From NCBI GenBank assembly GCA_947482345.1, contig CANKJN010000005.1, positions 102 to 64,101 on the forward strand: a stretch of DNA of 64,000 nt, written 5' to 3'. Source of the DNA: Spartobacteria bacterium. GTDB taxonomy: Bacteria > Verrucomicrobiota > Verrucomicrobiia > Chthoniobacterales > UBA6821. Shown here piece after piece: positions 7,422-44,141 of this stretch. A program made the translations under genes and the position numbers. Under the pieces are notes generated by a model. It ran no database searches. It saw only the letters and a list, made by a program, of their open reading frames with translations, and had not been told where the DNA came from. Numbering within the stretch: the stretch's first letter is position 1; each line of letters starts with the position of its first letter.

Positions 7422-8693
7422 TTATGCCCAGCCGGTCGGTTTCCTTACCGTGAATAGTAGCGCCAGCAGGCTGACCGCCGCCATGATGGCGAGGTAAAGA
7501 CCGACCGACCAGAGTCCGTGACTGATGGCAAGCGAGGTTGCCGCATAGGGCGCGAGGGAGGCTCCGAGGATGCCGGCCAGATTGAACGCCAGGGAAGAGC
7601 CGGTGTAGCGGATCTCCACGGGGAAGAGCTCCGAGAGGAAGGTACCCAGCGGCGCATAGGTCATTCCCATTAGGATGAACCCGATGATCAGGGTGGCCAT
7701 GACACCCGGGAATCCCGCCGAGAAGAGGGGGCCGAAGCAGAGTCCGAAAACAAGGATCGCTGCGGAAGATACGATGAGCATCACTCTTCGTCCGATCCGC
7801 TTGGCCAACCATGCGGAACAGGGAATCGACAACCCGAAGAAGAGGACGCCGACCAACTGGATCACGAGGAAATCTTCCCGGGTGTAGCCCAGGGTGGTGG
7901 TCCCCCACGAGAGGCAGAAGACCGTCAGCAGATAGAAGATGACAAAGGTGGCCACGGCTCCGAGTGTGGCCAGAAGGAGGAGGGCCAGGTGACTGCGGAA
8001 GACCTCAATCATCGGCACGGCGACATGCCCCCGTCGGGCAGTCACCTCAAGGAACGCGGGGGTCTCGGTGATATGCAACCGGACATAGAGGCCAACAAGG
8101 ACCAGCAGGCTGCTTGCGAGGAACGGGATCCGCCATCCCCAACTCAGGAAGTGCTCGTTATCGAGGAAGGCGGTGAGAAGGAGGAAGATGCCCCCTGAGC
8201 AGAGAAATCCCAACGGAGCACCGAGTTGGGGGAACATCCCGTACCAGTCGCGCTTCCCCGGCGGCGCGTTCTCCGTGGCGAGCAGGATGGCCCCACCCCA
8301 TTCCCCTCCGAGGCCGAATCCCTGGCCGAAGCGGCAGAGCGCTAGCAGTACGGGAGCCGCCAGTCCGATCGATGCGTAAGTGGGGAGTAGTCCGATCGCG
8401 ACCGTCGAGAGTCCCATGGTAAGCAGAGCCGCCACCAGGGTTGCCTTCCGGCCGATGCGGTCGCCGAAGTGTCCAAACACGGCCGATCCGACCGGGCGGG
8501 CGAAGAAAGCCAAGGCGAAGGTGGCGAGTGATTGTAGCGTCGCCGCCGTGGCATCCGAGGAGGGAAAGAAGAGCTTCGGAAAGACGAGGACCGCCGCCGT
8601 GGCATAGATGTAGAAATCAAAGAACTCGATGGCGGTTCCCGCTAGGCTGGCCGTAAGGATCCTGGCCGTGGAATTGGTCGCGGGGGGTGACAT
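7422..8693 (-). CDS. MFS transporter, MHS (metabolite:H+ symporter) family
   Basis: GTAIEFFDFYIY, RPVGSAVFGHFGDRIGRK, QGFGLGGEWGGA, WGWRIPF. Confidence 0.92.
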   Translation of the reverse strand: MSPPATNSTARILTASLAGTAIEFFDFYIYATAAVLVFPKLFFPSSDATAATLQSLATFALAFFARPVGSAVFGHFGDRIGRKATLVAALLTMGLSTVAIGLLPTYASIGLAAPVLLALCRFGQGFGLGGEWGGAILLATENAPPGKRDWYGMFPQLGAPLGFLCSGGIFLLLTAFLDNEHFLSWGWRIPFLASSLLVLVGLYVRLHITETPAFLEVTARRGHVAVPMIEVFRSHLALLLLATLGAVATFVIFYLLTVFCLSWGTTTLGYTREDFLVIQLVGVLFFGLSIPCSAWLAKRIGRRVMLIVSSAAILVFGLCFGPLFSAGFPGVMATLIIGFILMGMTYAPLGTFLSELFPVEIRYTGSSLAFNLAGILGASLAPYAATSLAISHGLWSVGLYLAIMAAVSLLALLFTVRKPTGWA

Positions 8694-8802
8694 GGAAAAG
8701 GAGGGAAAAAAGCTGAAACGCTAAAAAGCTGAAATGGAAATCAGGAAAAAGGTCGATGCACCGATCGGTTCCCGCGGCATCCCCCAATTTTTCATTCTCC
8801 TC

Positions 8803-11109
8803 TTAAAAGCGTTTCTGCTGGGCCATGGAGAACCAGTCGCCGCCCCCCGTTCCGGGCTTTCCCGAGTCGTTGCGCATGTAGCGGCTTAAGTCCTCTTTCC
8901 TTCCTCCTCGATCGGTGCCAGGGGCTCCCTTCGGCTGGCGCGGCGAGAGATCGACCTTGGTCTTGAGGGAGAGGGCGATGCGCTTGCGCGGCAGGTCGAC
9001 CTCCATGACGGTGGTCTGGACTTTCTGGCCGACCTTAAGGAACTCCGCGGGGTTCTTCACGAAGTCGTCGCTGATCTGACTGATGTGGACGAGTCCGTCC
9101 TGATGGACGCCGATGTCGACGAAGGCGCCGAAGGCCGTGACATTCGTCACGATGCCGGGGAGCTTCATGCCCGGCTGGAGGTCCTCCATCTTCTCAACCC
9201 CGTCGGCGAAGCTGAATGCCTCGAACTGCTCGCGCGGGTCGCGGCCGGGCTTGGAAAGCTCGGCGATGATGTCCTTGAGGGTGGGAAGGCCCACCTCCGG
9301 GGTGACATAGCGTTCGGGATTGATGGCGGCACGCTTGGCGGGATCACGCAGGAGATCCTGCACCGTGCAGCCGAGATCCGCAGCCATGCGGTCGACGAGT
9401 TCGTAGCGCTCGGGATGGACGGCACTGGCATCGAGCGGGTGGGCGCCGTCGCGGATGCGCAGGAAGCCCGCGGCCTGCTCGTAGGCCTTGGGTCCGAGGC
9501 CGCTGACCTTGAGGAGTTCCTGGCGTGACTTGAAGGGGCCGCTGGTGTCGCGGTGGGTGACGATGCTGGCGGCGGTGCGGGAGTTGAGCCCCGAGACGTA
9601 GGCAAGGAGGTGTCTGGAGGCGGTGTTAAGCTCCACTCCGACCTTGTTCACGCAGGAGATCACGACATCGTCCAGGGAACGCTTCAGCGCGGCCTGATCG
9701 ACATCGTGCTGGTACTGGCCGACGCCGATTGATTTCGGATCGAGCTTCACCAGCTCGGCGAGCGGATCCATGAGGCGGCGGCCAATGGAGACGGCTCCGC
9801 GGACGGTGAGGTCGAGGTCGGGGAACTCCTCGCGGGCAATCTCGCTTGCCGAGTAGATCGAGGCGCCGCTCTCGCTGACGACGACGATCTGGATAGAGGA
9901 GGGGAGCTTGAGCTTCTTGACGAATGCCTCGGTCTCGCGCGAGGCGGTGCCGTTGCCGATGGCGATCGCCTCGACCTTGTGCAGGCGGACCATGTTCAGG
10001 ATGGCCTCAGCTGCCTCGAGTTCCTCGCCGCGGCTTCTGCCCGGATAGATGACCTCGTTGGCGAGGAGCTTTCCCTGACGGTCGAGCAGGACAACCTTGC
10101 ATCCGGTGCGGAAGCCCGGATCGATGCCGAGGGTGATCTTCTGGCCGAGAGGGGAGGCGAGAAGGAGTTCGCGGAGATTGTCGGCGAAGACACGGATCGC
10201 CTCCTCGTCGGCCTTCTTCTTGTAGAAGCCGCGCGCCTCCACCTCCATGGCGAATCCGACAAGTCGCTTGAGGCAGTCGTCGCAGGCGAGTTTCACCTGC
10301 TCGGATGCCTTGGAGTTCCCCCGCACGAAGAGTCCGTAGAGGGTGCCAAGCGCCTCGCTCTCAGGAGGTGTCAGCCGGGTGTAGAGGAATCCCTCGGTCT
10401 CTCCGCGTCGCATTGCGAGAATCCTGTGGGAAGGGGCCGTGGCGGCCGGTTCGTTCCAGTCGAAGTAGTCCTTAAACTTGGCTCCCTCCTCTTCCTTGCC
10501 CGAGACGAGGGTCGATTTGATGACCCCCTTGTTGAGGTAGAGACTTCGGAGTTGGGCGCGGGCGGTGGCATCGTCGTTGATCCGTTCGGCCAGGATGTCG
10601 CGTGCTCCGGCGAGGACGGCTGCCACGCTGTCGACCGTCGAGGTCTTGGCATCGACGGTGACGGAGTTCCCGACGTAGGGGGCGGCGAGCGCCTCGGGGT
10701 CGGTGGCCGGATCCTGTGCCCAGAGAATTTCGGAAAGCGGCTCCAGACCGAGTTCCTTGGCGATGGTCGCTCGCGTCCTTTTTCTCGGCTTGAATGGGAG
10801 GTAGATGTCCTCGAGGGAATTCAGGGTTGCTGCACTCTCGACCTTGGCCCTGAGTTCCTCGGTCAGGAGCTTGCGTTCCTCGAGTGAGGAAATGATCGAC
10901 TCGCGCCGCTTGTCGAGGGTTTCAAGCTGCTCGAGGCGGTCGCGGATCGCGGTGATCTTCACCTCATCGAGTTCACCTGTCCGCTCCTTGCGGTAACGGG
11001 CGATGAAGGGGACGGTGGCCCCCTCCTCAAGAAGGACGGCTGTGGCGGCGACCTGACGGGCCTGAAGCCCGAGTTCCTGGGTAATCTGGACAAGGTGTTT
11101 TTCGATCAT
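8803..11109 (-). CDS. tex: Tex/YhgF RNA-binding transcriptional accessory protein
   Basis: GATVPFIARYRKERTG, GIDPGFRTGCK, IGVGQYQHDV, C-terminal S1 domain (FGAFVDIGVHQDGLVHIS). Confidence 0.96.
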   Translation of the reverse strand: MIEKHLVQITQELGLQARQVAATAVLLEEGATVPFIARYRKERTGELDEVKITAIRDRLEQLETLDKRRESIISSLEERKLLTEELRAKVESAATLNSLEDIYLPFKPRKRTRATIAKELGLEPLSEILWAQDPATDPEALAAPYVGNSVTVDAKTSTVDSVAAVLAGARDILAERINDDATARAQLRSLYLNKGVIKSTLVSGKEEEGAKFKDYFDWNEPAATAPSHRILAMRRGETEGFLYTRLTPPESEALGTLYGLFVRGNSKASEQVKLACDDCLKRLVGFAMEVEARGFYKKKADEEAIRVFADNLRELLLASPLGQKITLGIDPGFRTGCKVVLLDRQGKLLANEVIYPGRSRGEELEAAEAILNMVRLHKVEAIAIGNGTASRETEAFVKKLKLPSSIQIVVVSESGASIYSASEIAREEFPDLDLTVRGAVSIGRRLMDPLAELVKLDPKSIGVGQYQHDVDQAALKRSLDDVVISCVNKVGVELNTASRHLLAYVSGLNSRTAASIVTHRDTSGPFKSRQELLKVSGLGPKAYEQAAGFLRIRDGAHPLDASAVHPERYELVDRMAADLGCTVQDLLRDPAKRAAINPERYVTPEVGLPTLKDIIAELSKPGRDPREQFEAFSFADGVEKMEDLQPGMKLPGIVTNVTAFGAFVDIGVHQDGLVHISQISDDFVKNPAEFLKVGQKVQTTVMEVDLPRKRIALSLKTKVDLSPRQPKGAPGTDRGGRKEDLSRYMRNDSGKPGTGGGDWFSMAQQKRF

Positions 11110-12665: not shown

Positions 12666-13811
<1,146 letters not shown>

Positions 13812-16169: not shown

Positions 16170-16480
16170 TTCGACTTTGGTCTCTCGTCCCTTGACCTCC
16201 TGAGATTGCTGATTTTTTACCCCTCGACTATCGACCTTCGTCCTTCGACTCACATGATTGCTGATTGCTCCCCGCAGATCCCCCTTCTGAATCAACAATT
16301 ACCAATGATGAATTAGCAATTTCACCCACCTTCGCACTTAGCCACCTTTAGCCTTTCCACTTTTTACTTCCCCCTGATCTCCGACCTCTGACCTCCGACC
16401 TCCGACCTTCGACAACGGAGATTGCTGATTGTAGATTGCTGATTTTTTATCTCTCGACTATCGACCTTCGTCCTTCGCCT
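16170..16480. repeat. Mosaic heptamer-rich intergenic repeat block
   Basis: CCGACCT x4, GATTGCT repeats, and two copies of TTTTTA(C/T)C(C/T)CTCGACTATCGACCTTCGTCCTTCG. Confidence 0.8.
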
Positions 16481-16531: not shown

Positions 16532-18088
16532 GTGAGTAATCTCAATACCCAGCGACTCGGCCTTTTTCTTGTGATGGGGCTGGGCATACTTTTTGCGCTC
16601 TTTGCAGGGAATTACGTGGCCGAAGAGGATTACACTCCCATTGCCATCGTGTTCGGAGGACTAGTGGCTATCACTCTGGTCTTCAGTGTCGGTACCAATG
16701 CCTATCTGCTTATACCGATGTGCTGGCCCTTGATAGGCACTATTCATCTTCTGCCGCTGCCGTTTAATGTGCGACAGATCGCCATGATCTTTGCCAGTCT
16801 CATCTTTGTTTCCGGCGTCATTTTCAAGAGGGCTGGGGGTAAAAAAGTCCCGTTTGATATCCTCGATCTCTGGGTTTGGATCAATGTGGGATACTTAGTG
16901 ACAGTCTTTTTTAGAAACCCTGTCGGGATCAATGCCTTGGGGGGGGATCGTGTCGGAGGGAGGCCATACGTTGATGTCGCACTTGGATTCATGGCCTATC
17001 TAATCCTGAGGCGGGAGACCATTTCCCCAAAGATGGCACGGCTGATTCCTTTAGTTTGGCTATCGGGCGAGATTATTAATGGAATGGGTGGACTAGTCGG
17101 TCTTTACTTTCCTTCCATTGGTTCACAAATAGGAATGCTTTACAGCAGCTTCCTTCCAGGCTTTGGTAAAGAGCAGGTGGGGGCCATTGTCGGAGAAGAT
17201 CGTTTAGTTTCGTTGCAAGGGGCAGGTGCAACTTTGGCTCTGTACATTATCTGCAGTGTAAATCCGACGCATCTGATCCGCCCTCAAAACATGGTGAAGT
17301 TGTTTGGATATTTGCTAGGAGTCCTTCTCGTCATGCTTAGCGGGTTCAGAAATGCGCTCTTTAACGTTTTTCTCATGACGGCCTTTGGTGCCATGATGGG
17401 AGATCGCTTTATCGGTATCCTTAAGGTTATTGTAATTGTATTTTTGGGGGCATTAGCAGGTGTTCTATTCAGTTACAGCAGCATCAATCTTCCATGGACC
17501 TTCCAGCGCACCCTCTCATTTCTGCCTGGCAACTGGGATCCGACGGCCGTTGAGGCGGCAAAGGGCAGTTCAGAATGGCGCTATGAGATGTGGAGGTCAG
17601 CGCTGAGTACCGACAGATATATCCACAACAAGCTCTTGGGCGATGGGTTCGGAATGTCCCGTCAGGACTATGAGCGCGTTCTGGACGCCAGTCTTGGTGG
17701 AGTCGGCTTCATCGGTGAGAGTGCTACACAGGAGCAATTCATGGTCAGCGGCCAGTTTCATAGCGGCCCGGTCTCTTCAATACGATTTGTAGGCTATGTT
17801 GGATTAGCGCTTTTTCTCATCCTCTTATTCATGTTGGCACAGACTGCATACCGCATGACTCTGAAATCTCGCGAAACTCCTTATCTTTTTATATCAATGT
17901 TTATAGGTATTCCTGTAATTATTTATCCTATCTTTTTCCTATTTGTCTTTGGTGCCTATGAGCATGATATCATCAATATGTTATTTTTTGTAGGAATGAT
18001 CAAAATGATCAATGCCTCACTGAGGAAATATCATGAAGATTCGGAAAAAAGTAACATGATCCCTCCAGCACCAAGTCTCTCGCTCTAA
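16532..18088 (+). CDS. Wzy/O-antigen ligase-like polysaccharide polymerase
   Basis: Polytopic membrane protein with SGFRN, a periplasmic loop (SSEWRYEMW...LLGDGFG) and FHSG...GYVG. GTG start. Confidence 0.75.
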   Translation: MSNLNTQRLGLFLVMGLGILFALFAGNYVAEEDYTPIAIVFGGLVAITLVFSVGTNAYLLIPMCWPLIGTIHLLPLPFNVRQIAMIFASLIFVSGVIFKRAGGKKVPFDILDLWVWINVGYLVTVFFRNPVGINALGGDRVGGRPYVDVALGFMAYLILRRETISPKMARLIPLVWLSGEIINGMGGLVGLYFPSIGSQIGMLYSSFLPGFGKEQVGAIVGEDRLVSLQGAGATLALYIICSVNPTHLIRPQNMVKLFGYLLGVLLVMLSGFRNALFNVFLMTAFGAMMGDRFIGILKVIVIVFLGALAGVLFSYSSINLPWTFQRTLSFLPGNWDPTAVEAAKGSSEWRYEMWRSALSTDRYIHNKLLGDGFGMSRQDYERVLDASLGGVGFIGESATQEQFMVSGQFHSGPVSSIRFVGYVGLALFLILLFMLAQTAYRMTLKSRETPYLFISMFIGIPVIIYPIFFLFVFGAYEHDIINMLFFVGMIKMINASLRKYHEDSEKSNMIPPAPSLSL

Positions 18089-19587
18089 TGGTTACACGAT
18101 CCAAGCGATTTGCTACAGGAGTCGTCACGTCCTATGGAGCGATCTTGATCAATGTCTTCTACACGGTTTTTAGTGTCCGGTTGGCTCTGCACTATCTGGG
18201 CAAGGAGGAGTTTGGGCTCTGGGCGCTCGCCCTACAGATCTCCGGGTATATGGTATTACTCGAGTTAGGTATGTCATCTGCTATCAGCCGATTCCTTGCC
18301 GATCATAAGGATGATGTGAATGGAGACGAGTATGGTAGCCTGCTACTGACAGGTAGCATAGTTTTTGCGCTCCAGGGGGGCATAATAGCGATTGCGGGAG
18401 CAGCATTCTCCTTTGTCGCACCGGCCTTATTCCATGTTCCCCCCGCTCTGGCATCGGACTTCAGGTGGGTGCTGGTGATCAGCACCTCCCTCTCCGGATT
18501 CACCATTGCTACGCGCAGTGTTGGAGGGCCTCTCTGGGCCTTTCAGCGGATGGATATCACCAATCTCCTGGCGATCATGACGCTCGTACTCGGCTATGGA
18601 GCGCTGTGGTTGGGATTCAGGGCGGGATATGGAATCTACAGCCTGGCTTATGCCGGCATTCCAACCGCAATATTATCGCCAGTCATTATCTGCATCGTCT
18701 GTATAAGAAAAGGCTATTACCCAGCACGCGGCTCCTGGGGGAGGCCGCAGTGGGGGCTCTTCAAGAAACTTTTTTCTTTTGGCAAGGACGTGCTTCTGAT
18801 GTCGATTGGATCTCAATTGGTGAATGCCTCGCAGATCATGATCCTGAGCCGTTTTGTCGGTCTCGATGCGGCGGCGACCTTCTCCGTCGGGACGAAGTTC
18901 TACACGATGGGGCAGCAGTTTGTTGGGAAGGTTTTGGAGAATTCAGCACCTGCTCTTACGGAGATTTTTGTCAGGGGGGACAGGATTAGATTTAACGAAC
19001 GGTTCTGGAATGTCGTGAGCGTGACGGCATTTCTAGCAACAATTGGTGCGGCAGGACTTATGATGGGGAATCAGATACTGGTCACCTTCTGGACATCGGG
19101 AGTCATACACTGGAGTCTCGGCGCGGATGTGATTCTTGTAGCCCTTCTGCTAGTCACCTCACTCTCTCGCTGTTTTGTGAGCATCTTTGGTCTGGTTAGG
19201 GATCTCAGACCTGTACGATACATTTACTTCCTTGAAGGGTGCGTGTTCATCCTGCTCGCTCTTCCTGCCGTTAGGCAATTTGGAGTGATCGGTGTCTTGG
19301 CATCATCCCTCGTAGCCCATCTCTCCGTTACAATGGTCATCTCGAGTCGGGTTGCTACCGCATGGCTGGATTCGATGAGACCACTCGTACACATAATATG
19401 GAGCACTCTAGTGATCACTCTTGTGGTTCTTGTAGTGGCTGTTGCTATCAATTATTTTCATCCTTCAACAATCGTTGTCATTCCTCTCTCACTCCTCATC
19501 ATCCTCTCCGTTACCGTAGCAGTTTGGTTGATAATCCTCCCCAAAAAAATAAGGCAGGACATCTTCATTAGAATAAAAAACGCATGA
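18088..19587 (+). CDS. Wzx-like polysaccharide flippase
   Basis: LGKEEFGLW...LELGMSSAISRF, many hydrophobic segments, translationally coupled to the polymerase. Confidence 0.85.
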   Translation: MVTRSKRFATGVVTSYGAILINVFYTVFSVRLALHYLGKEEFGLWALALQISGYMVLLELGMSSAISRFLADHKDDVNGDEYGSLLLTGSIVFALQGGIIAIAGAAFSFVAPALFHVPPALASDFRWVLVISTSLSGFTIATRSVGGPLWAFQRMDITNLLAIMTLVLGYGALWLGFRAGYGIYSLAYAGIPTAILSPVIICIVCIRKGYYPARGSWGRPQWGLFKKLFSFGKDVLLMSIGSQLVNASQIMILSRFVGLDAAATFSVGTKFYTMGQQFVGKVLENSAPALTEIFVRGDRIRFNERFWNVVSVTAFLATIGAAGLMMGNQILVTFWTSGVIHWSLGADVILVALLLVTSLSRCFVSIFGLVRDLRPVRYIYFLEGCVFILLALPAVRQFGVIGVLASSLVAHLSVTMVISSRVATAWLDSMRPLVHIIWSTLVITLVVLVVAVAINYFHPSTIVVIPLSLLIILSVTVAVWLIILPKKIRQDIFIRIKNA

Positions 19588-34937: not shown

Positions 34938-35189
34938 ATGAAGACCACTCTGGAGTTGCCGGATAATCTGTTACGGAAGGTGAAATCAACCGTTGCATCC
35001 TCAGGGAAGACGATGAAAGCCTTTATGATCGATGCCATTCAGGATAAGCTGGCGGCTCAGGAAGCGGCCGCATCCAAGCCCTGGCTGATGCACTTTGGGG
35101 CACTGCGTCATCTTGGTGGAGAGCGGCAGGCGATTGAGGCCAGGATCCGAGAGGAATTTGACGTCGTGGATTCCAACCAGTGGAAGTAA
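34938..35189 (+). CDS. VapB-like ribbon-helix-helix antitoxin
   Basis: MKTTLELPDNLLRKVK; overlaps the PIN toxin start. Confidence 0.8.
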   Translation: MKTTLELPDNLLRKVKSTVASSGKTMKAFMIDAIQDKLAAQEAAASKPWLMHFGALRHLGGERQAIEARIREEFDVVDSNQWK

Positions 35190-35566
35190 TACTCGATACG
35201 AACGCTCTCTCGGCGTTGCTCGACGGAGATGAGGATCTTCGTGTCATTCTAAGCAAGGTCTCGCAGGTTCTGCTTTCCCCGATTGTTCTTGGTGAATACC
35301 GCTTCGGGATCCTTGCATCAAGGCACCGACAGGAGTACGAGAAGGAACTGAGGCTTCTGGAGAAATGTCTTCATGTCCTGATTTTGGATGCCAGAACCGC
35401 GGTCGAATATGCGGCGGTGAGGAATGAGTTGAAGTCAGCCGGGACCCCAATTCCATGGCACGATATCTGGATTGCCGCGCAGGCTAGGCAGCACGATGTC
35501 AGGATTTTATCCAAGGGTAGCCATTTTGATGTCGTTGATGGTGTGAAAAGAGTGAGTTGGGGATGA
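35180..35566 (+). CDS. vapC: VapC PIN-domain toxin
   Basis: ILDTNALS, IVLGEYRFG, GTPIPWHDIWIAA, HFDVV. Confidence 0.9.
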   Translation: MEVILDTNALSALLDGDEDLRVILSKVSQVLLSPIVLGEYRFGILASRHRQEYEKELRLLEKCLHVLILDARTAVEYAAVRNELKSAGTPIPWHDIWIAAQARQHDVRILSKGSHFDVVDGVKRVSWG

Positions 35567-35804
35567 GGATTAAGGATTAAGAATGGAGGATGGAGGATGG
35601 AGGACAAAGTCGACAGACGAGAACCAATCCGCTGGGAATCGGCGCGGTGGATCCCGCTTTAGCGGGACCCGTAAGGGTGTCACCGCTTTGCGGGAGCAAA
35701 GTGACATCAATCGACAGTCGAGTGCCGAGGGAGAGCGGAAGGAGGTCAGAGGTCAGGGGTCAGAAGCCTCATTCAGCAGTCAGAACCAAGCCTGTGATCA
35801 CAGG

Positions 35805-35857
35805 CGCGGTAGACTACGACGCAGTCGTAGCCCCAACGGGGCGCCGCGGCTTCCGGG
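35805..35857. repeat. REP-like repeat family B; copies at 44290-44342 (inverted) and 48758-48810 (diverged)
   Basis: GCGGTAGACTACGACGCAGTCGTAGCCCCAACGGGGCGCC, containing two hairpins. Confidence 0.8.
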
Positions 35858-35953
35858 GGGAAGTGGCGTCAAATCAACAATCAGCAGTCAGCAGTCAGCA
35901 GTCAGCAGTCGCTGATATTGTCAATTGAGCGGCGATGTCATAAATTTGAGGTG

Positions 35954-36184
35954 ATGGAAAGTGTTGTCCAAGTTGAAAAAGCTCCCGAGCGCGTGCCGGT
36001 TTCCCCCGAGGTGGCAGAGCGTGCGGCGGATCTTGTGCGCCGTTTTTCTGAGTGTTTTTGGTTCCGTCACCCGAAGGCGGCGATTCGCTTCACCGACGAT
36101 GTGAGGTTGGTGATAGAGCACCTGCGTGACTACGGTGACAAGAGGGCGTGGGCCGCCGCAGCAGAGTTGCAGCGCTGTCTGTAA
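35954..36184 (+). CDS. Small hypothetical protein, putative partner of the downstream nucleotidyltransferase
   Basis: 76-aa ORF (ECFWF...EHLRDYG...ELQRCL) 11 bp upstream of the NTase-like gene. Confidence 0.6.
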   Translation: MESVVQVEKAPERVPVSPEVAERAADLVRRFSECFWFRHPKAAIRFTDDVRLVIEHLRDYGDKRAWAAAAELQRCL

Positions 36185-36195
36185 CTTCCAAAGGA

Positions 36196-37035
36196 ATGCC
36201 GCTAACGCCTTTTCAAAAAGAGGTTCTGAAGGTTCTGGTCTCCAATCGTTCGGAGCAGAGTCATGTGGCCGGAGGATTGGTGCTGAATGCGCCGGAGAAT
36301 TCGTCACGTTATTCGCGTGATTTTGATTTCTTTCACGAGGCGGTGGAGGATTTGGTCATCGCAAGCGAGCAGGATGTCCTCTCGCTTGAGAAAGCGGGTT
36401 TTCTTGTGCAAAAGGTCGAGCGTGACGGCGAGTGGTCGAAGCTGGTTTCCTTTAGGAAGGCCTATGTCATCGAGAATGGTGAGAGGGTTGAGTTGGACTG
36501 GGCTCATGATTCAGCGTTCCGGTTTTTCCCGATCGTTCCCGACGAGTTATTGGGTTGGAGGCTGCATCTCTTTGATATGGCGACGAACAAGGCGCTTGCG
36601 TTGTCCGCCCGTATGGAGACGCGTGATTATGTGGATATGGTTGAGCTTTCACGGCGTTTTCCCCTTGAGGCCATCATCTGGGCGGCTTGCGGCAAGGATC
36701 CGGGATTCAATCCCCTGTCTCTGTTCAGGATGATGATGAGGTTTGCCCGGATCGACCCAGCAAAACTTGAGGAGATTCAGGCACGCAGACTGGATCCAGT
36801 CGCCCTGAAGGAGGAGTGGATCATGGTTTCCGACAAGGCCCGGGAGGAAATAACGCTTTTAGCGGATGAGCGTCCGGAGATTCCGATCGGGGTGGCCTTC
36901 GTGGATGAGCAAGGGAATCCCGGATGGATCCGCTCGAACCCTTCCCTAAAGATTCACCATCCTTCTCTTAGAGGATGCTGGCCATCGTGGTCAGGAGTGA
37001 ACTCCTTCAGGAGGCCACCAACCGGTGATGGTTGA
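36196..37035 (+). CDS. AbiEii/AbiGii-like nucleotidyltransferase-fold protein
   Basis: HVAGGLVL...RYSRDFDFF (GG...S.D.D), NKALAL...RDYVD. Confidence 0.72.
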   Translation: MPLTPFQKEVLKVLVSNRSEQSHVAGGLVLNAPENSSRYSRDFDFFHEAVEDLVIASEQDVLSLEKAGFLVQKVERDGEWSKLVSFRKAYVIENGERVELDWAHDSAFRFFPIVPDELLGWRLHLFDMATNKALALSARMETRDYVDMVELSRRFPLEAIIWAACGKDPGFNPLSLFRMMMRFARIDPAKLEEIQARRLDPVALKEEWIMVSDKAREEITLLADERPEIPIGVAFVDEQGNPGWIRSNPSLKIHHPSLRGCWPSWSGVNSFRRPPTGDG

Positions 37036-37221: not shown

Positions 37222-40143
37222 ATGACCATCTCCATCATCACTCCAAGTTACGGCCAGCTCGACTGGCTGAAGCTGTGTGTTGCTTCAGTGGCTGATCAGA
37301 ATCAGCCACTGAAGCAAGGGAGCTGGGAGCTGGAAGCTGGAAGTTTGGGGGGAGATGCACCTGCGGGGCAGGGGGTGCGAGTGGCTGAGTCAAAGGTGGG
37401 TAAAATTGCTAATTCATCATTGGAAATTGTTGATTTAGAAGAGGGATCCGCAGGGAACCCTCAGCAATCAGTAATTAGAAATCAGGAATCACCAATCGCC
37501 TCCCCGCTTCGCGTGGAGCACATCATCCAGGATGGGGGGACTCCGGGGATCGAGGAATTCGCCAGGGAGTTGGGTGAGGATCTCAAGTCGCGGTATGGTG
37601 GAGATTTTGTTTCAGACCTTCAAACCTTCGAACTTTTGCACCTTCGCACTGCGTCCGGTTACACGCTCCGCGTGTTCAAGGAACCGGACGCCGGCATGTA
37701 CGATGCGATCAACAAGGGGATCGCCAAAATGAGTGGCGATCTCTGGGCATGGATCAACAGCGACGAGCAGTATCTTCCCGGGACGCTGGCCTATGTGGTG
37801 CGGTGGTTTGAAGGACGCCGCGATGCCGACATTCTCTGCGGCGATGCCCTGCTCACGGATGACTCCGGCAAAGCACTCTCCTACCGCAGGATTGTGACTC
37901 CGTGGTGGAATCATACACGGTTGGTGCATCTTTCCTCACTGAGTTGCGCGAGTTTTTACCGGCGTTCCATCGTGGAGAGGGGAGGTGTTTTTGACACGGT
38001 TTGGCGCTCCATCGGGGATGCCGAGTGGATGGCCCGGATGATGAAAGACGGTGTCCGGATCGAGGCTTGCGGGAAGCTCTTCTCGACTTTCGCCTTCACG
38101 GGTCAGAACACGAGCGAGTCTCCGCTTGCCAGGAAAGAATCCGACGAATGGAAGAAGGCGGCTGACGCCCCCTCCGCATGGATGATGCTGCCGGTGATCG
38201 GAGTGCATCGTTGCCGGAAATTTCTCGCAGGCGCCTATCGTCGCCGCGATGTGAGTTATGCGATCCACCGTCAGGGCGAAGGGCGGAAGGAATTTCGTGC
38301 CGAGGGGATCGGTTGGGACTGGCCCTCCGCCCTATCCTCGATCCAGTCGGCTGTTTCCAAGATGGTTCCCAACCCTCATGTGCCTTATGTCGACTCTACG
38401 AGAGTCTTAGGCACATCCCTCATGGAGACAACCTATGAGGGTCTCTCCACGGTTCTCCTGGATGCGGGATCAAGTGGTGGGGGAGTGCTCGCCGTTGATT
38501 TTGCGAACACCCATGTCGTGACCATGCGGCGTCATGATCCCAAGTTCATGAATCTCACGGCGTGCATCGACCTGATCGCTCCGGATGGGATGCCCTTGGT
38601 GTGGGCAATGAATGCCAAGGGTGCGAATCTTGAGGATCGGGTTTACGGGCCGACCTTCACGCGGCGTTTCCTTGCATCATGTCCCGCGGATAAAACCCAC
38701 TACCTGGTGGGAGGCTCGGAGGAGTGCGGTCGCAAATTCCGGGAGCAGATGCTGGCGTTGAACCCTTCGCTGAATTTCGTGGGCGGGTATCATGGTCGCT
38801 GTTCCGGTGATGGTGAATTGGACGATCAGAAGAAGGTGAAGGCCGAGATTCTCGAAAAACGCCCCGATTTCATCTGGGTGGGCTTGGGGACACCCAAGCA
38901 GTATGCATGGATCCATCGGATCAAGCTGCAGCTCGATCACGGGGTGCTGTTGGCGGTCGGCTTTGCCTTTGATGTGAATGCGGGGATGAAACCCGATGCT
39001 CCCGCATGGATGCAGCGGCTTGGTCTCACCTGGATCCACAGGATGGCCTCCGAGCCGGGGCGGCTGGCAGGACGGTATCTGAAATGGAATACGCTCTTTA
39101 TCAGCTATTGGATTGCCGAATTCGTCGGCGGAGGGGTTCGCTCGGTGAAACTTCATCTCCGCAACGCATTCCTGCGCTTCGTGGATCTCCTTTCGCGGGA
39201 GATCTTCGATCTGGAGGATGGTCGCCCTCTGGGCCGTGCCCTCCTATTCGGACAGGGTGGTGGAGTCCGCGTCATCGGGCATGAGGGGCTGCCACCGCTC
39301 ATTCCCAGATTCATCCCTCAGGAGCGCCTGACCTACTGGAAGCAGTCGATCGGTTTCACGACCCCTCCTAGGCCGGACTTTCCAAGGCTCGAGGGGGTGT
39401 CCGCCGCCCCTGTACCCTCATCACCCCGCGTGCTGAATGTGGTGCTCACCCACTTGGACGGAGACCGGTTGGTCCGCACCAGGGAGCGCTGGAGGGATGT
39501 CTGCAGGGAAGAGGATCTCTGGATCGCCTTTGGTGGGAAACAACGGAACTTCCGCAATCTCGGGATGGAAAGATCCGTCTTCATCGGGGATGCGGGTCTG
39601 AGAAGGGAGGACAACCAGAGGGAGAAGCAATCTTACACCGGCATCTTTCACGCCATGGCACCCGTGGTCGAGAGGGAGAGGCCCGATTACATTTATCTCT
39701 GTGAGTATGATCATGTGTCCCTGCGCTCTGATCTGAATGCCCTTCAGGTGGCCGAGATCACCGCCGAGGGAGCCGATGTGATGGGGCACTGGCTCTACCG
39801 TGTGGACGGGACCAGCCACTACCACATGCTCTATCATCAATCCGATCCGGGCTTCCTGCGTTACTGGCAGTCCGTTTCACGCCGGGAGGAGAAGGGTGTC
39901 GTGCTCTCGATGTTCGGAAGCGGATCGCTCTGGTCGAGGGAGGCCTTTCTGGCCATCGCCTCAAGGACACAGCAGATCCCCTGTTATCTGGAGCTGTACC
40001 TCCCCACGCTGGCCCATCACCTCGGCTACCGGGTGAGATGCTGGGATGAGTCGCGCCACATGATCTCCAATCTACCCTCGAGGAAATGGACGATTGACGA
40101 GGCCATGAACAGGGATTGCCTGACCATTCATCCCGTGAAATGA
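37222..40143 (+). CDS. Multi-domain glycosyltransferase: GT2 + WecB/TagA/CpsF (GT26) + small unknown domain + putative GT-A-like domain
   Basis: SIITPSY, GMYDAINKG, WINSDE (GT2); PDGMPLVW, VGLGTPKQ, GFAFD (TagA); C-terminal LCEYDH...HPVK. One uninterrupted 973-aa ORF. Confidence 0.85.
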   Translation: MTISIITPSYGQLDWLKLCVASVADQNQPLKQGSWELEAGSLGGDAPAGQGVRVAESKVGKIANSSLEIVDLEEGSAGNPQQSVIRNQESPIASPLRVEHIIQDGGTPGIEEFARELGEDLKSRYGGDFVSDLQTFELLHLRTASGYTLRVFKEPDAGMYDAINKGIAKMSGDLWAWINSDEQYLPGTLAYVVRWFEGRRDADILCGDALLTDDSGKALSYRRIVTPWWNHTRLVHLSSLSCASFYRRSIVERGGVFDTVWRSIGDAEWMARMMKDGVRIEACGKLFSTFAFTGQNTSESPLARKESDEWKKAADAPSAWMMLPVIGVHRCRKFLAGAYRRRDVSYAIHRQGEGRKEFRAEGIGWDWPSALSSIQSAVSKMVPNPHVPYVDSTRVLGTSLMETTYEGLSTVLLDAGSSGGGVLAVDFANTHVVTMRRHDPKFMNLTACIDLIAPDGMPLVWAMNAKGANLEDRVYGPTFTRRFLASCPADKTHYLVGGSEECGRKFREQMLALNPSLNFVGGYHGRCSGDGELDDQKKVKAEILEKRPDFIWVGLGTPKQYAWIHRIKLQLDHGVLLAVGFAFDVNAGMKPDAPAWMQRLGLTWIHRMASEPGRLAGRYLKWNTLFISYWIAEFVGGGVRSVKLHLRNAFLRFVDLLSREIFDLEDGRPLGRALLFGQGGGVRVIGHEGLPPLIPRFIPQERLTYWKQSIGFTTPPRPDFPRLEGVSAAPVPSSPRVLNVVLTHLDGDRLVRTRERWRDVCREEDLWIAFGGKQRNFRNLGMERSVFIGDAGLRREDNQREKQSYTGIFHAMAPVVERERPDYIYLCEYDHVSLRSDLNALQVAEITAEGADVMGHWLYRVDGTSHYHMLYHQSDPGFLRYWQSVSRREEKGVVLSMFGSGSLWSREAFLAIASRTQQIPCYLELYLPTLAHHLGYRVRCWDESRHMISNLPSRKWTIDEAMNRDCLTIHPVK

Positions 40144-40219: not shown

Positions 40220-40921
40220 ATGATGAAAAACAGCGCCATTTCAGCCAGTAATCCCTTTTTCCGCGTTGCGGTCGTAGTCCTGCTGTCCGTCGTGACGGTT
40301 GTCTCCTTCCGGTTTGCCGCCATGCCAACCTCTGCCGGTGGGGCAGGTGTCATCATGAGTCTTCCCTCATCGGTCGGTGCCTTCTCGGGACGTGATCAGG
40401 AGACATCCGAGGGGGAGCGAACGGTGCTCCCCAAGGACACGGAGATCATCAAGAAAGTCTACACCAACCCCGTTGGCGAAATCATCAATGCCCAGATCGT
40501 GCTGTCCGGTGCCGAGAAGCGCAGCATTCACCGTCCCGAGCTCTGCCTGCCGGCCCAAGGGTGGTCGATCACTGGCCGGCAGTATCTTTCTGTCAAGCTG
40601 GCCGACGGGCGAACCATCACCGTGATGTGTGATGCGATCACCAGGCAGGTCGAGGTCGCGCCCGGGGTCAGCAGGCCCCTGACCAGCCTTTTCTGTTATT
40701 GGTTTGTCGGCGACGGGGCCACTACGGCCTCCCATGTGAAGAGAATTCTGCTCACAAGTTGGGATCGCGTCGTCCATCACAAGAATCACCGCTGGGCCTA
40801 CATCGCGGTGAGTGCCCCGGTGCTCGAAGGGTTCCTTCCCGGAGGGAAAAGTGTGAGAGGCACTGAGGTCATGATTTCGGATTTTATCGCTCAGATTGCA
40901 CCGGGGATCATGAAGCGCTGA
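40220..40921 (+). CDS. epsI: EpsI-family exosortase-associated protein
   Basis: N-terminal transmembrane segment, SIHRPELCLPAQGW, YWFVG. Confidence 0.8.
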   Translation: MMKNSAISASNPFFRVAVVVLLSVVTVVSFRFAAMPTSAGGAGVIMSLPSSVGAFSGRDQETSEGERTVLPKDTEIIKKVYTNPVGEIINAQIVLSGAEKRSIHRPELCLPAQGWSITGRQYLSVKLADGRTITVMCDAITRQVEVAPGVSRPLTSLFCYWFVGDGATTASHVKRILLTSWDRVVHHKNHRWAYIAVSAPVLEGFLPGGKSVRGTEVMISDFIAQIAPGIMKR

Positions 40922-40990: not shown

Positions 40991-41395
40991 ATGCCTAGCT
41001 ATCGATGGCCTGAGGAACTGCCCTGCTATCAGGAAGCGCGCAGATTTCGTATTGCGGTCGCTGACTTATGCATGCTGTTACCAAAAACAGAGGAATACCG
41101 TCTTAAAGATCAGATGCTTCGTGCAGCCCGCTCCGTGACGGCAAATATTGCCGAGGGTTTTGGGAGGCATCATCATCAGGAAAATATCCAATTTTGTCGG
41201 CAGGCGAGGGGATCGCTGATTGAAATGAGGGATCATCTCAATACTGCCGCAGATGAGGGTTTTGTGGAGAACGTGCAAGTTGGTGATGTTCTCAAGATGC
41301 TTGAATCATCCCTTGCATCCCTGAATGGATATCTTGTCTATCTCAAGAATTGCGCTTCTGATTCCAAACTCAAACAATCACCAATTAACAATTAA
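40991..41395 (+). CDS. Four-helix-bundle protein (23S rRNA IVP-like family)
   Basis: EEYRLKDQMLRAARSVTANIAEGFGR...ARGSLIE; flanked by AATTGTT/AACAATT heptamers. Confidence 0.9.
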   Translation: MPSYRWPEELPCYQEARRFRIAVADLCMLLPKTEEYRLKDQMLRAARSVTANIAEGFGRHHHQENIQFCRQARGSLIEMRDHLNTAADEGFVENVQVGDVLKMLESSLASLNGYLVYLKNCASDSKLKQSPINN

Positions 41396-41414
41396 CAATC
41401 TCCTCCTTTTGCCG

Positions 41415-42449
41415 ATGCCCTTTCCCAATCAGCAATCAGCAATCAGCAATCAAAAGTCGTTTGCGCCGACAATTCTTGCTGCGGGTGTCGTCTCCCTGTT
41501 GATCACCTCTCTCTTCCTGTCGGTCCAGTACAGCTACGGGATAGGAACGACCACGTACTCTCTGGCCCAGTATATCTGGCGGACTTGGAATGAGAGCGAG
41601 GACATGGGACACGGCATGATCGTCGTGCCGGCCGCCCTGTTCCTGATCTACCATGATCGGGAAAGGCTTCTTTCAATCACTCCCAAGCCGGGATGGGGAG
41701 GATTGGTGCTCCTGATCACAGGGTTGATGATCTACTGGTGCGGTCATTTGGCCGACGTCACCTTTGCAGGACTTTTCAGCCTGATCGTCATCCTGGCCGG
41801 AACCATCTGGTGGTTGCTCGGTTGGGAGTTCCTGAAGGCGCTTTCCTTTCCCATCGCCTTCCTGATTTTTGCGATCCCCTTTCCCGGCATCGACTCCATG
41901 GTGGCGCTTCCCCTGCGCTATCTGATGTCGAAGCTCGGGGTGGTGATCTTGAATCTCCTCGGAGTACCCGTGGTGCTGGTGGGTACGGGCATCCTCTCGG
42001 CTCCCGATGCGGCGCAGCACCTTGCAACGGGGCAGAAATTCGCCGTCGATGTGGCCAATCCGTGTAGCGGGATCCGTTCGCTCTTCGCTCTGATGATGGT
42101 GGGGGCGCTTTTCGCCCATTTCACGCTCAAGGGTGCCTGGAGGAAGTGGATTCTCTTTCTCTGCACGCCGCCGCTGGCCGTGCTCGGCAATCTGGTGCGA
42201 ATCCTGATGCTCACGCTCGGAACGGTTGCCTTCGGAAGCGAATTCGCGTTAGGGAAAAACCCTCTGGAGCATCCCTCCTGGTTCCACATGCTGGCCGGTT
42301 ATCTGGTCTTCATGGTGGCGCTTGCCGGAATGATGGGGGTTGCCTCCCTGCTCGGGCGTCTCCCCGGTGGTGTCCGAAGCAGCGCACCGTCGCCTGCGGC
42401 GCGGCCGAACCAAGGGGTTCCCGAATCGGATTCCGTCGATCGCTACTGA
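41415..42449 (+). CDS. Exosortase (EpsH family)
   Basis: HGMIVVP, VANPCSGIRSL (Cys), NLVRI (Arg), WFHMLAG (His). Start placed at ATG 41415. Confidence 0.9.
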   Translation: MPFPNQQSAISNQKSFAPTILAAGVVSLLITSLFLSVQYSYGIGTTTYSLAQYIWRTWNESEDMGHGMIVVPAALFLIYHDRERLLSITPKPGWGGLVLLITGLMIYWCGHLADVTFAGLFSLIVILAGTIWWLLGWEFLKALSFPIAFLIFAIPFPGIDSMVALPLRYLMSKLGVVILNLLGVPVVLVGTGILSAPDAAQHLATGQKFAVDVANPCSGIRSLFALMMVGALFAHFTLKGAWRKWILFLCTPPLAVLGNLVRILMLTLGTVAFGSEFALGKNPLEHPSWFHMLAGYLVFMVALAGMMGVASLLGRLPGGVRSSAPSPAARPNQGVPESDSVDRY

Positions 42450-42872: not shown

Positions 42873-44141
42873 ATGAATTCCCCCGCAGCGAGCCAGGAAA
42901 GGGAGCATCACAGACCCCGGATCCTGCAGATTTTCTCACGCTATCGGGAGTATGGCGGCGAGGAGGGGAGTGTCTACCGGATCGGTGATGCGCTGCATCG
43001 AGATTTCGACATCGGCTTCTTCCTGGCATCGAGCGGGGATGCCTTTTCCGGCGGGGTTCTCAAGAAGGGCCTCTCTACGATCAAGGCATTCTCCAATTGG
43101 ACCATCGTGGATCAGTTGCGCCGTTACCAGCAGCTCGGGCGGTATGATTGCTGGCTGATTCACAATGTCTTCCCGGTCATGTCTCCGGCTGTCTACGAGC
43201 TGGCCTTCACCTTGAGGATTCCGATCATTCATTATCTGCATAATTACCGGATGGGGTGCGTCAACGGTTTCTTTATGAATCATGGAGAGCCGTGCCAGCG
43301 GTGCATGCACGGGAGCTTCCTTCCCGCATTCCAGACCGCATGCTGGCATGGGAGTCACGTTCAGAGCGGCATCATGGGTGCCGTCACTAGCCGTGCACGG
43401 GGCATGGATCTCTTTCACCGGGTGCACCACTGGGTTGCGATCAGCAGTGCGCAGAAAAAAGAGCACGTGGAGATGGGGATCCCCGCTGACCGGATCTCCG
43501 TCATTCCTCATTTTTTTGAATCAAAGGGGGAGGCGCCCGATTATCCGGATCAGGGAGATGTGCTCTTTGTCGGAAGACTCTCCGCCGAGAAGGGAGTGGA
43601 TCGTCTTCTCATGGCATGGGAGGCCATTCAGGATTGCGGGAGAACCCTCTGGATCGTGGGTGACGGGCCCGAACGCAGTAAACTCGAGGAGATGGTACGA
43701 AGCAGAAGTCTCCGGAGTGTCCGCTTCACCGGCTTTCTGGAACGGGAGGCGATGGCATCAATCTGGGAAAAAGCGGCCTGTTCGATCGTCCCCTCGGTCT
43801 GGAAGGAGCCGTTCGGCATGGTGGTGCTGGAATCATGGGCCAAGGGGCGCCCCGTCATCGCCCACCGGATCGGTGCGCTCGAGGAGATTGTCTCCGATGG
43901 AACCGACGGCCTTCTCGTCCCCGTGGATGAACCCGGGGCATTGGCGGAAGCGATCCTCTCGATCCTTAATGACCCTGCTCGCGGGAAAGCCATGGGGCGT
44001 GCCGGAGCAGAGAAGCTTAGACACCAATATTCCAAGCAGGTTTGGCAGGATGCGATACAAGGGATTTTTGCGCACTTGCCATCACGCAATTCGTTCCATG
44101 AAAAGTCGAAGGTCGAAGGTCGAAAGACGAGTGTCGATTAG
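42873..44141 (+). CDS. GT4 glycosyltransferase
   Basis: GGEE, HNVFPVMSP, GRLSAEKG, EPFGMVVLESWAKGRPVI. Confidence 0.9.
   Translation: MNSPAASQEREHHRPRILQIFSRYREYGGEEGSVYRIGDALHRDFDIGFFLASSGDAFSGGVLKKGLSTIKAFSNWTIVDQLRRYQQLGRYDCWLIHNVFPVMSPAVYELAFTLRIPIIHYLHNYRMGCVNGFFMNHGEPCQRCMHGSFLPAFQTACWHGSHVQSGIMGAVTSRARGMDLFHRVHHWVAISSAQKKEHVEMGIPADRISVIPHFFESKGEAPDYPDQGDVLFVGRLSAEKGVDRLLMAWEAIQDCGRTLWIVGDGPERSKLEEMVRSRSLRSVRFTGFLEREAMASIWEKAACSIVPSVWKEPFGMVVLESWAKGRPVIAHRIGALEEIVSDGTDGLLVPVDEPGALAEAILSILNDPARGKAMGRAGAEKLRHQYSKQVWQDAIQGIFAHLPSRNSFHEKSKVEGRKTSVD

Follow-up and report, generated by a model that had tools for sequence, protein, structure and literature searches.

A four-part fusion in a Spartobacteria bacterium joins two glycosyltransferase domains to a predicted GT-A-like domain and its small partner

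What might a cell build with a protein in which two recognizable glycosyltransferase (GT) domains are joined, in one chain, to two segments that match no curated family? This question is raised by a 64,000-nucleotide stretch of contig CANKJN010000005.1 (positions 102 to 64,101, assembly GCA_947482345.1) from a Spartobacteria bacterium of the Chthoniobacterales, hereafter called the window, in which a plus-strand gene at 37222-40143 encodes a protein of 973 aa. Based on domain matches, conserved motifs, predicted folds and gene neighborhoods, we propose, with a probability of roughly 0.72, that this protein is a three-module enzyme of an exosortase-linked polysaccharide locus and builds a lipid-linked repeat unit. 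Both GT-A glycosyltransferases and multi-domain glycan assembly enzymes are known; what is added here is a two-gene module, consisting of a short segment that we call seg90 and a GT-A-like C-terminal domain that we call Cdom.

The gene is read as one uninterrupted frame of 973 codons with zero internal stops, and its start codon is supported because homologues start at the same methionine. The encoded protein comprises a GT2 domain (residues 1-345), a GT26 domain (395-635), seg90 (640-722) and Cdom (736-973), as follows:

37222-38256, plus strand: GT2 domain (GT-A fold), WcaE-like, residues 1-345, assigned via Pfam PF00535, NCBIfam WcaE and PDB 9omm
37303-37512, plus strand: low-complexity insert of ~70 aa within the GT2 domain, in its alpha1-beta2 loop, residues 28-97
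38404-39126, plus strand: GT26 domain of the WecG/TagA/CpsF type (GT-E fold), including its C-terminal amphipathic appendage, residues 395-635
39139-39387, plus strand: seg90, 85 aa, residues 640-722, homologous to stand-alone proteins encoded beside Cdom genes
39427-40140, plus strand: Cdom, residues 736-973, assigned via AlphaFold2, Foldseek and an alignment of members

An original prediction for this stretch had described a single frame joining a GT2, a GT26, a segment of ~90 aa and a domain of ~240 aa, and both the open frame and the Pfam and NCBIfam matches agree with it. The motifs that it cited also lie as stated, with KLHLRNAFL...GFTTPP at residues 643-716, EYD at 828-830 and HPVK at the very end of the protein.

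A frame of this kind could in principle be an artefact of assembly or of a frameshift that joined neighboring genes, and it speaks for such an origin that the parts are encoded as separate genes in most relatives; the comparison of relatives that the original prediction had proposed indeed found seg90 and Cdom apart in 63 of 79 loci, and GT2 and/or GT26 as separate genes in L004-L006. Against it, a search with residues 640-973 recovered the order GT2, GT26 and C-terminal part, in one continuous frame, in ~45 clusters with 52-97% identity, drawn from JGI, ENA, NCBI and Logan assemblies and thus from different projects and assemblers. The same continuous four-part frame is present in four genome loci (L001, L002, L003 and L007) of metagenome-assembled genomes labelled Chthoniobacterales or 'Spartobacteria', and the four-part fusions group as one clade on a maximum-likelihood tree built on Cdom. 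Because the four-part layout recurs in clusters from independent assemblies, an assembly artefact is ruled out for practical purposes, its remaining probability being negligible, and the junction evidence argues strongly that the fusion is genuine. Column conservation is lowest at the inter-domain linkers (residues 346-394, 630-642 and 720-735), as expected where once-separate genes have fused.

The C-terminal part of the protein, residues 640-973, matches zero Pfam or NCBIfam models at E<=1 and gave no significant match in the PDB, either by single sequence or by a 42-sequence profile. Matches to PRMT6 at E 0.055, obtained in the search with these residues, were judged to be due to chance. 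AlphaFold2, run on residues 640-973 with 44 homologues, returned a model with a mean predicted local distance difference test (pLDDT) of 85.3 and a predicted template-modelling score (pTM) of 0.84. Foldseek comparison of this model with the PDB yielded 110 matches at E<=0.001, and the top 31 are all GT-A glycosyltransferases, among them GtrB, BcsA, SpsA, UGGT, B3GalT6, COLGALT1, LgtC and GnT-I (probability 1.0, E ~1e-5 for the top matches). The sub-threshold Pfam matches of the Cdom family likewise all belong to the GT-A clan (NTP_transf_3, n=5; Glyco_tranf_2_3, n=2; Glyco_trans_2_3, n=2). Predicted structure and family searches together mark Cdom as a divergent enzyme of GT-A fold that belongs to none of the curated families tested. 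The earlier suggestion that this domain may represent a new GT-A family is therefore a fair one, and the structural check for a non-GT fold did not contradict it. Alignment of Cdom with the protein's own GT2 family by hhalign gave an insignificant probability of 2.9%, so that a recent duplication of the N-terminal domain is ruled out as its origin.

The conserved residues of Cdom point in the same direction as the fold. Seven residues (H744, G772, E828, D830, E924, G935 and H970) are invariant in 42 members, down to 23% identity. In the predicted secondary structure, E828-Y-D830 stands at the end of beta4, right after the strand YIYLC; E924, within YLE, opens a helix spanning residues 923-933; H970 belongs to the C-terminal HPxK tail, and an FGSGS loop occupies residues 898-902. 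For the common core of the GT-A fold, sites named DxD, xED (at the start of helix alphaF) and C-His have been defined (PMC7185993); in the model and alignment, ExD and H970 of Cdom occupy the first and the last of these, and E924 is a candidate, with Glu in place of Asp, for the xED site. Most likely, Cdom would then be an inverting glycosyltransferase with Glu as its catalytic base.

Two other readings of Cdom deserve attention. According to the first, Cdom together with seg90 would be a nucleotidyltransferase, or a transferase of sugar-phosphate or other phospho-groups, that decorates or activates a glycan. Five family members match the MobA-like NTP_transf_3 model below threshold (best E 0.0023), and the same-fold enzymes IspD, KdsB and IspDF appear among the Foldseek matches at E ~1e-4. 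However, the best structural matches are all glycosyltransferases (GtrB to GnT-I in the list above), and the glycine-rich GxGxR loop of MobA-like and sugar nucleotidyltransferases (PF12804) is absent after beta1, where Cdom reads VLNVVLTH and ends on the invariant His. An ExD motif closing beta4 together with a C-terminal His is moreover the pattern of GT-A glycosyltransferases (PMC7185993), and Cdom is repeatedly found fused to GT4, GT2 and GT26, so that we regard the nucleotidyltransferase reading as unlikely. The second reading holds that Cdom is a dead pseudo-glycosyltransferase, a scaffold that with seg90 organizes or regulates GT2 and GT26; it draws on the extreme divergence from all known GT-A families and on the Glu that replaces Asp at the base position. 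A purely structural role is at odds with the invariance of H744, E828, D830, E924 and H970 across the 42 members, and since most members stand alone, in genes without a fused glycosyltransferase, Cdom cannot be a mere scaffold for GT2 and GT26. We consider this second reading very unlikely and retain the view of Cdom as a probable glycosyltransferase.

When 1.84 billion representative proteins were scanned exhaustively with HMMER, just 161 clusters of the family (at 50% identity) were recovered. Most members are stand-alone proteins of ~245-265 aa; some reach ~335-350 aa, and fusions to GT4 or GT2 occur in a few cases. The genome from which the window derives (2.36 Mb, 93% complete) holds one Cdom copy. 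Two homologues, P0016 (1229 aa) and P0024 (791 aa), carry a TupA-like ATP-grasp domain (PF14305) added to a GT26/Cdom fusion. At L079:7992-8733, Cdom is spread over two overlapping frames (7992-8318 and 8242-8733) with seg90 lying 1.1 kb downstream, which represents either a pseudogene or a sequencing frameshift.

The short segment that precedes Cdom could be taken for a linker, and it is its genomic distribution that suggests otherwise. seg90 shares the conserved motif LPPLxPxFxPQxRLTYWKQxIGFT and has no Pfam match, even in a family-wide search. Modelled alone, it forms one helix and five beta strands (pLDDT 83.6, pTM 0.58), and a Foldseek search of this model against the PDB found no fold match (best E 2.1, TM score <=0.28). 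A role as transmembrane anchor was rejected, since seg90 has no hydrophobic stretch of the transmembrane type and basic residues interrupt its helix. In 79 related genome loci, which were collected via Cdom motifs only, a separate open reading frame (ORF) of 87-105 aa encoding seg90 lies directly beside the Cdom gene in 63, either upstream (49 loci, mostly overlapping the Cdom start) or downstream (14 loci). Haloferula chungangensis (L078) offers an example of a split pair, with seg90 at 7965-8243 and Cdom at 8243-8977. In 12 further loci seg90 is fused; the remaining 4 yielded no seg90, and 3 of these are truncated by the end of a contig. In the independent annotations of NCBI, JGI and ENA, the stand-alone protein appears as a 'hypothetical protein' of 87 aa.

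Profiles of both parts were also used to scan 401 genomes, sampled evenly across the phylum. seg90 was detected in 9 genomes, the same 9 that have a strong Cdom match, and the two are adjacent or fused in 9/9; neither is present in 391 of the 401. The hypergeometric probability of this co-occurrence is ~1.5e-17, a figure that ignores phylogeny. Judged by this linkage, seg90 is a partner protein rather than a spacer or linker, a point that the original prediction had missed, and seg90 and Cdom represent a strictly linked two-gene module that, among the libraries searched, is without a curated description.

The association also extends to distant relatives of Cdom (23-30% identity), where a seg90-like ORF abuts the Cdom start in 6 of the 7 loci with upstream DNA; in 2 of the distant loci the gene caller had missed it. 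Just upstream of Cdom in L089 and L090, the public calls list an opposite-strand ORF only and no plus-strand seg90-like gene. The distant partners carry a CxxCG...H-x(4-5)-C pattern, which resembles a C2HC zinc ribbon, while verrucomicrobial seg90 reads D..TG and has no cysteines at this place. The signature is found at:

L081, 3211-3417: distant seg90 with C2HC signature
L083, 3666-3995: distant seg90 with C2HC signature
L086, 412-756: distant seg90 with C2HC signature
L089, 5696-6001: distant seg90 with C2HC signature
L090, 5533-5841: distant seg90 with C2HC signature

It is possible that this pattern marks a zinc site that was lost in the verrucomicrobial branch. The rise in pTM from 0.58 for seg90 alone to 0.84 for the joint model suggests that seg90 and Cdom pack as one unit and, taken together with the gene linkage, the separately encoded polypeptides probably form a heterodimer. 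A bolder version, which we put forward as possible but rather doubtful, is that the pair constitutes an undescribed heterodimeric GT-A enzyme, whose seg90 subunit derives from a C2HC zinc-ribbon-like mini-protein and has become indispensable for activity or for acceptor recognition.

Compared with these two parts, the GT26 domain is readily assigned. Pfam Glyco_tran_WecG (PF03808) matches residues 450-619 with 151.4 bits against a cut-off of 27.4 (E 2.6e-44), the NCBIfam WecB/TagA/CpsF model matches with E 1.1e-30, and TIGR00696 scores 106.7 bits against a cut-off of 69. The domain aligns with TagA of Thermoanaerobacter italicus (7mpk, E 4.6e-22), in such a way that D455 (in PDG) corresponds to TagA D65 and R473 (in DRV) to R83. 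TagA D65 is the proposed catalytic base and Thr37 orients the donor sugar, and roles have been described for Arg83 and for Arg214 and Arg221 in the membrane-binding C-terminal appendage (PMC6493773). The appendage arginines are kept here as well, since W..R607...EPGR614L pairs with W..R214...EPWR221Y of TagA. Hence the middle domain retains the catalytic Asp, the equivalent of Arg83 and the appendage arginines of the TagA/TarA/WecG enzymes (CAZy GT26; PDB 5wb4, 7mpk; PMC6493773, PMC8784642) and, like TagA and WecG, probably works on a lipid-diphosphate-linked sugar at the membrane surface. It differs from them in its setting: TagA and WecG are single-domain enzymes of ~245 aa, whereas this GT26 sits in the interior of a chain of 973 aa.

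The N-terminal GT2 domain is matched by Pfam Glycos_transf_2 (PF00535) at residues 149-207 with 39.2 bits against a cut-off of 23.3. The match covers profile positions 55-113 only, because a 70-aa insert splits the domain. NCBIfam WcaE (TIGR04009) matches below threshold, with 43 bits (E 2.5e-11) against an equivalog cut-off of 369. In common with WcaE-type GT2s of the colanic acid pathway (TIGR04009) and with a solved GT2 deposited as 'Glycosyltransferase' (9omm, E 5e-12), the domain contains the motifs DAGMYDAINKG, SDE and DAEW. Following the beta1 sequence ISIITPSYGQ, the DxD-like SDE (D181/E182) and the xED-like DAE (D266/E268) can be placed by this alignment, in which NSDE pairs with gaDD and GDAEW with aDAEW of 9omm. 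Unlike WcaE and 9omm, the domain carries in one of its loops the 70-aa insert derived from repeats, and it is extended at its C-terminal end by a conserved stretch (residues 290-345).

Two segments of this domain vary among homologues. The alpha1-beta2 loop that harbors the insert is hypervariable in length across homologues, from 9 to ~70 aa, and the DNA of the insert consists of dispersed short repeats kept in frame. A 78-nt piece of it is 88% identical to the intergenic window positions 16255-16332 on the opposite strand, its run of the heptamer AATCAGN matches arrays on other contigs, such as the tandem array at C27:13571-13712, and its GCTGGAA/GCTGGGA runs occur on many contigs. A heptamer-derived peptide like that of the insert (SAISNQKS) is also present at the N-terminus of the exosortase ORF of the window, at ~41426-41452. 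Further on in the domain (residues 116-150 of the protein, P0001), homologues show either of two unrelated versions of the segment, ELGEDLKSRYGGDFVSDLQTFELLHLRTASGYTLRVF or EVGAEFYRDG.LVFG.RPS..D...YRLAIYS (compared: P0002, P0006, P0009, P0010, P0012 and P0014). The version is independent of overall identity, as is seen in P0002, which carries the other one despite 96% identity in its C-terminal part; the pattern suggests cassette-like recombination.

How did the four parts come together? On the Cdom tree, the four-part clade (the window, L001, L002, L003 and L007) is sister to a two-part clade in which only seg90 and Cdom are fused (L004-L006; support 100/100), and both clades are nested among split forms. 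In L004, L005 and L006, GT2 and/or GT26 are separate genes that neighbor the fused pair. This arrangement and the tree together indicate the order of events, from a split pair to seg90-Cdom and then to GT2-GT26-seg90-Cdom. A second two-part clade (L040, L041, L048, L049 and L053; 100/100) sits elsewhere on the tree, and seg90 and Cdom have therefore fused at least two times independently. Loci in which seg90 lies downstream of Cdom mostly form one clade. Some taxonomic labels are doubtful. L008 (RFPR01000090.1) bears the label 'Proteobacteria bacterium' and shares 94% identity with the Cdom of the window, and L030 (PNAR01000041.1, 'Acidobacteriaceae') is nearly identical to the 'Spartobacteria' locus L028, their sample sets sharing a name prefix (palsa). 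These two labels are likely to be binning errors rather than signs of cross-phylum transfer. L031 (Terriglobales) is found on a long branch and may be a genuine case.

The genes around the fusion allow a closer look at the pathway that it may serve:

12666-13811: Glf (UDP-galactopyranose mutase)
16532-18088: candidate polymerase, weak
18088-19587: Wzx
35180-35566: PIN-domain gene
36148-37035: AbiEii-like nucleotidyltransferase gene (weak Pfam match, E 0.0024)
40220-40921, plus strand: EpsI (DUF3485), exosortase-associated, 77 bp downstream of the fusion gene (Pfam PF11984, NCBIfam EpsI_fam)
41325-42449, plus strand: exosortase of the EpsH/Xrt family (Pfam PF09721, E 1.1e-51; NCBIfam 8TM_EpsH, 151.5 bits)
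42873-44141, plus strand: GT4, downstream of the exosortase (Pfam Glycos_transf_1, Glyco_trans_1_4)

The order 3' of the fusion gene is EpsI, a four-helix-bundle gene, the exosortase and the GT4. The window also holds several GT4 genes, methyltransferases and a minus-strand block with GMC oxidase, AKR and MBOAT genes, and its gene content identifies it as a polysaccharide locus. The fusion gene is separated from the minus-strand MBOAT block by toxin-antitoxin-like genes (35180-37035), which are thus embedded in the polysaccharide locus. The NCBIfam models for exosortase-system glycosyltransferases (stp2 TIGR03088, stp3 TIGR04063 and XYAG1) do not match the 973-aa protein; in the window they match only the GT4 at 42873-44141, and there below their cut-offs. 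A literature search on GT2-GT26 fusions and on exosortase-linked TagA-type enzymes returned nothing relevant.

The proximity to an exosortase raises a further alternative, in which the glycan would be tied to the exosortase system itself, either through glycosylation of PEP-CTERM cargo or as a lipid-linked glycan that receives exosortase substrates. EpsI starts only 77 bp past the fusion gene, and in ~24 of the 79 loci the seg90/Cdom pair has an exosortase or EpsI gene as its immediate neighbor, 1-400 bp away; in a range of 8 kb around the pair, an exosortase is present in 35/79 loci and EpsI in 29/79. Yet exosortases occur in 299 of the 401 phylum genomes and the pair in only 9, which makes the pair a rare accessory of exosortase loci and not a core component. 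In addition, the locus encodes Wzx and a candidate polymerase, GT26 enzymes use polyprenol-diphosphate-linked acceptors (PMC6493773), and no substrate of the PEP-CTERM type was identified here. A product dedicated to the exosortase system thus seems improbable to us, and a lipid-linked repeat unit for a polysaccharide remains the preferred reading.

Under this preferred reading, the gene product would be a soluble, membrane-peripheral glycosyltransferase of the cytoplasm with three catalytic modules, which would transfer three sugars, one after another, onto a primer linked to polyprenyl diphosphate at the cytoplasmic face of the membrane. No segment of the transmembrane type is present in the 973-aa protein (maximum Kyte-Doolittle 19-residue mean 1.27), and attachment to the membrane could be mediated by the TagA-type amphipathic appendage. 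The first module would be an inverting, WcaE-like GT2, and the second a GT26 of the TagA/WecG type, inverting and independent of metal, from a class that glycosylates lipid-diphosphate-linked acceptors of the N-acetylglucosamine type. The third would consist of seg90 and Cdom, with ExD as putative metal and donor site, Glu at the position of the catalytic base and a C-terminal His. The product would be the repeat unit of a Wzx/Wzy-type exopolysaccharide specified by the same exosortase/EpsI-linked locus, to be flipped by Wzx and then polymerized. A multi-step glycan assembly enzyme with up to three catalytic sites had been foreseen in the original prediction, and as far as computation reaches, the domains, the motifs kept in GT2 and GT26 and the GT-A fold predicted for Cdom support this view. 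The sugars could be hinted at by Glf, which lies within 4-8 kb of the pair in 11/79 loci and near it in 3/7 distant loci (L083, L086 and L090). This recurrence could point to galactofuranose in the product, and it is a possibility that seg90 and Cdom carry out the galactofuranosyl-transferring step of exosortase-linked glycans.

Several observations weigh against this proposal. The structural matches of Cdom are weak in absolute terms (TM scores of 0.30-0.47, <=16% identity) and include the same-fold nucleotidyltransferases IspD and KdsB, and the candidate base at the xED site is Glu and not the usual Asp. The contact between seg90 and Cdom is deduced from a single-chain model and from gene linkage. 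In the GT26 domain, the alignment opens with TagA Thr37 paired with F427, and N39 is retained as N429. Finally, no priming phosphoglycosyl transferase is encoded in the window; candidates for this step are found on other contigs of the same genome, namely Bac_transf on C61 and C118 and a single PF00953 on C2.

Enzymes that combine several glycosyltransferase active sites in one polypeptide, acting on one growing glycan, are familiar from multi-catalytic proteins of the KfoC type, and the 973-aa protein resembles them in this respect. KfoC-like enzymes consist of two domains of the same fold and are polymerases, whereas a GT-A, a GT-E and a GT-A-like domain are combined here with a small accessory module, and the protein is more likely to assemble repeat units than to polymerize them. 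KfoC itself, the chondroitin polymerase of E. coli K4, has two GT-A domains (PDB 2z87, cited in PMC7185993). In another respect, seg90 and Cdom are reminiscent of Alg13/Alg14 (a split GT-B), DPM1-DPM3 and the chondroitin synthase heterocomplexes (PMC13389171), in which the catalytic glycosyltransferase depends on a separately encoded partner, and partner fusion and fission occur across lineages. seg90 has no detectable relation in sequence or fold to those partners, and a dependence of Cdom on seg90 is suggested by genomics only.

Altogether, the fusion acts as a 'Rosetta stone', which links the products of four genes, of which two lack annotation, to a single pathway, and it provides a functional lead both for the 161 clusters of the GT-A-like family and for its 'hypothetical protein' partner. 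To our knowledge, nothing is known biochemically about the glycans that accompany exosortase systems in Verrucomicrobiota, and the module described here may help to work them out. One polypeptide carrying out three consecutive transferase steps would be convenient for the reconstitution of lipid-linked oligosaccharides in vitro. If the proposal is true, bacterial glycan assembly would gain a new architecture, a GT-A enzyme with a small subunit as its obligatory partner, and the need for such a partner would explain why enzymes of this kind could be inactive when expressed alone.

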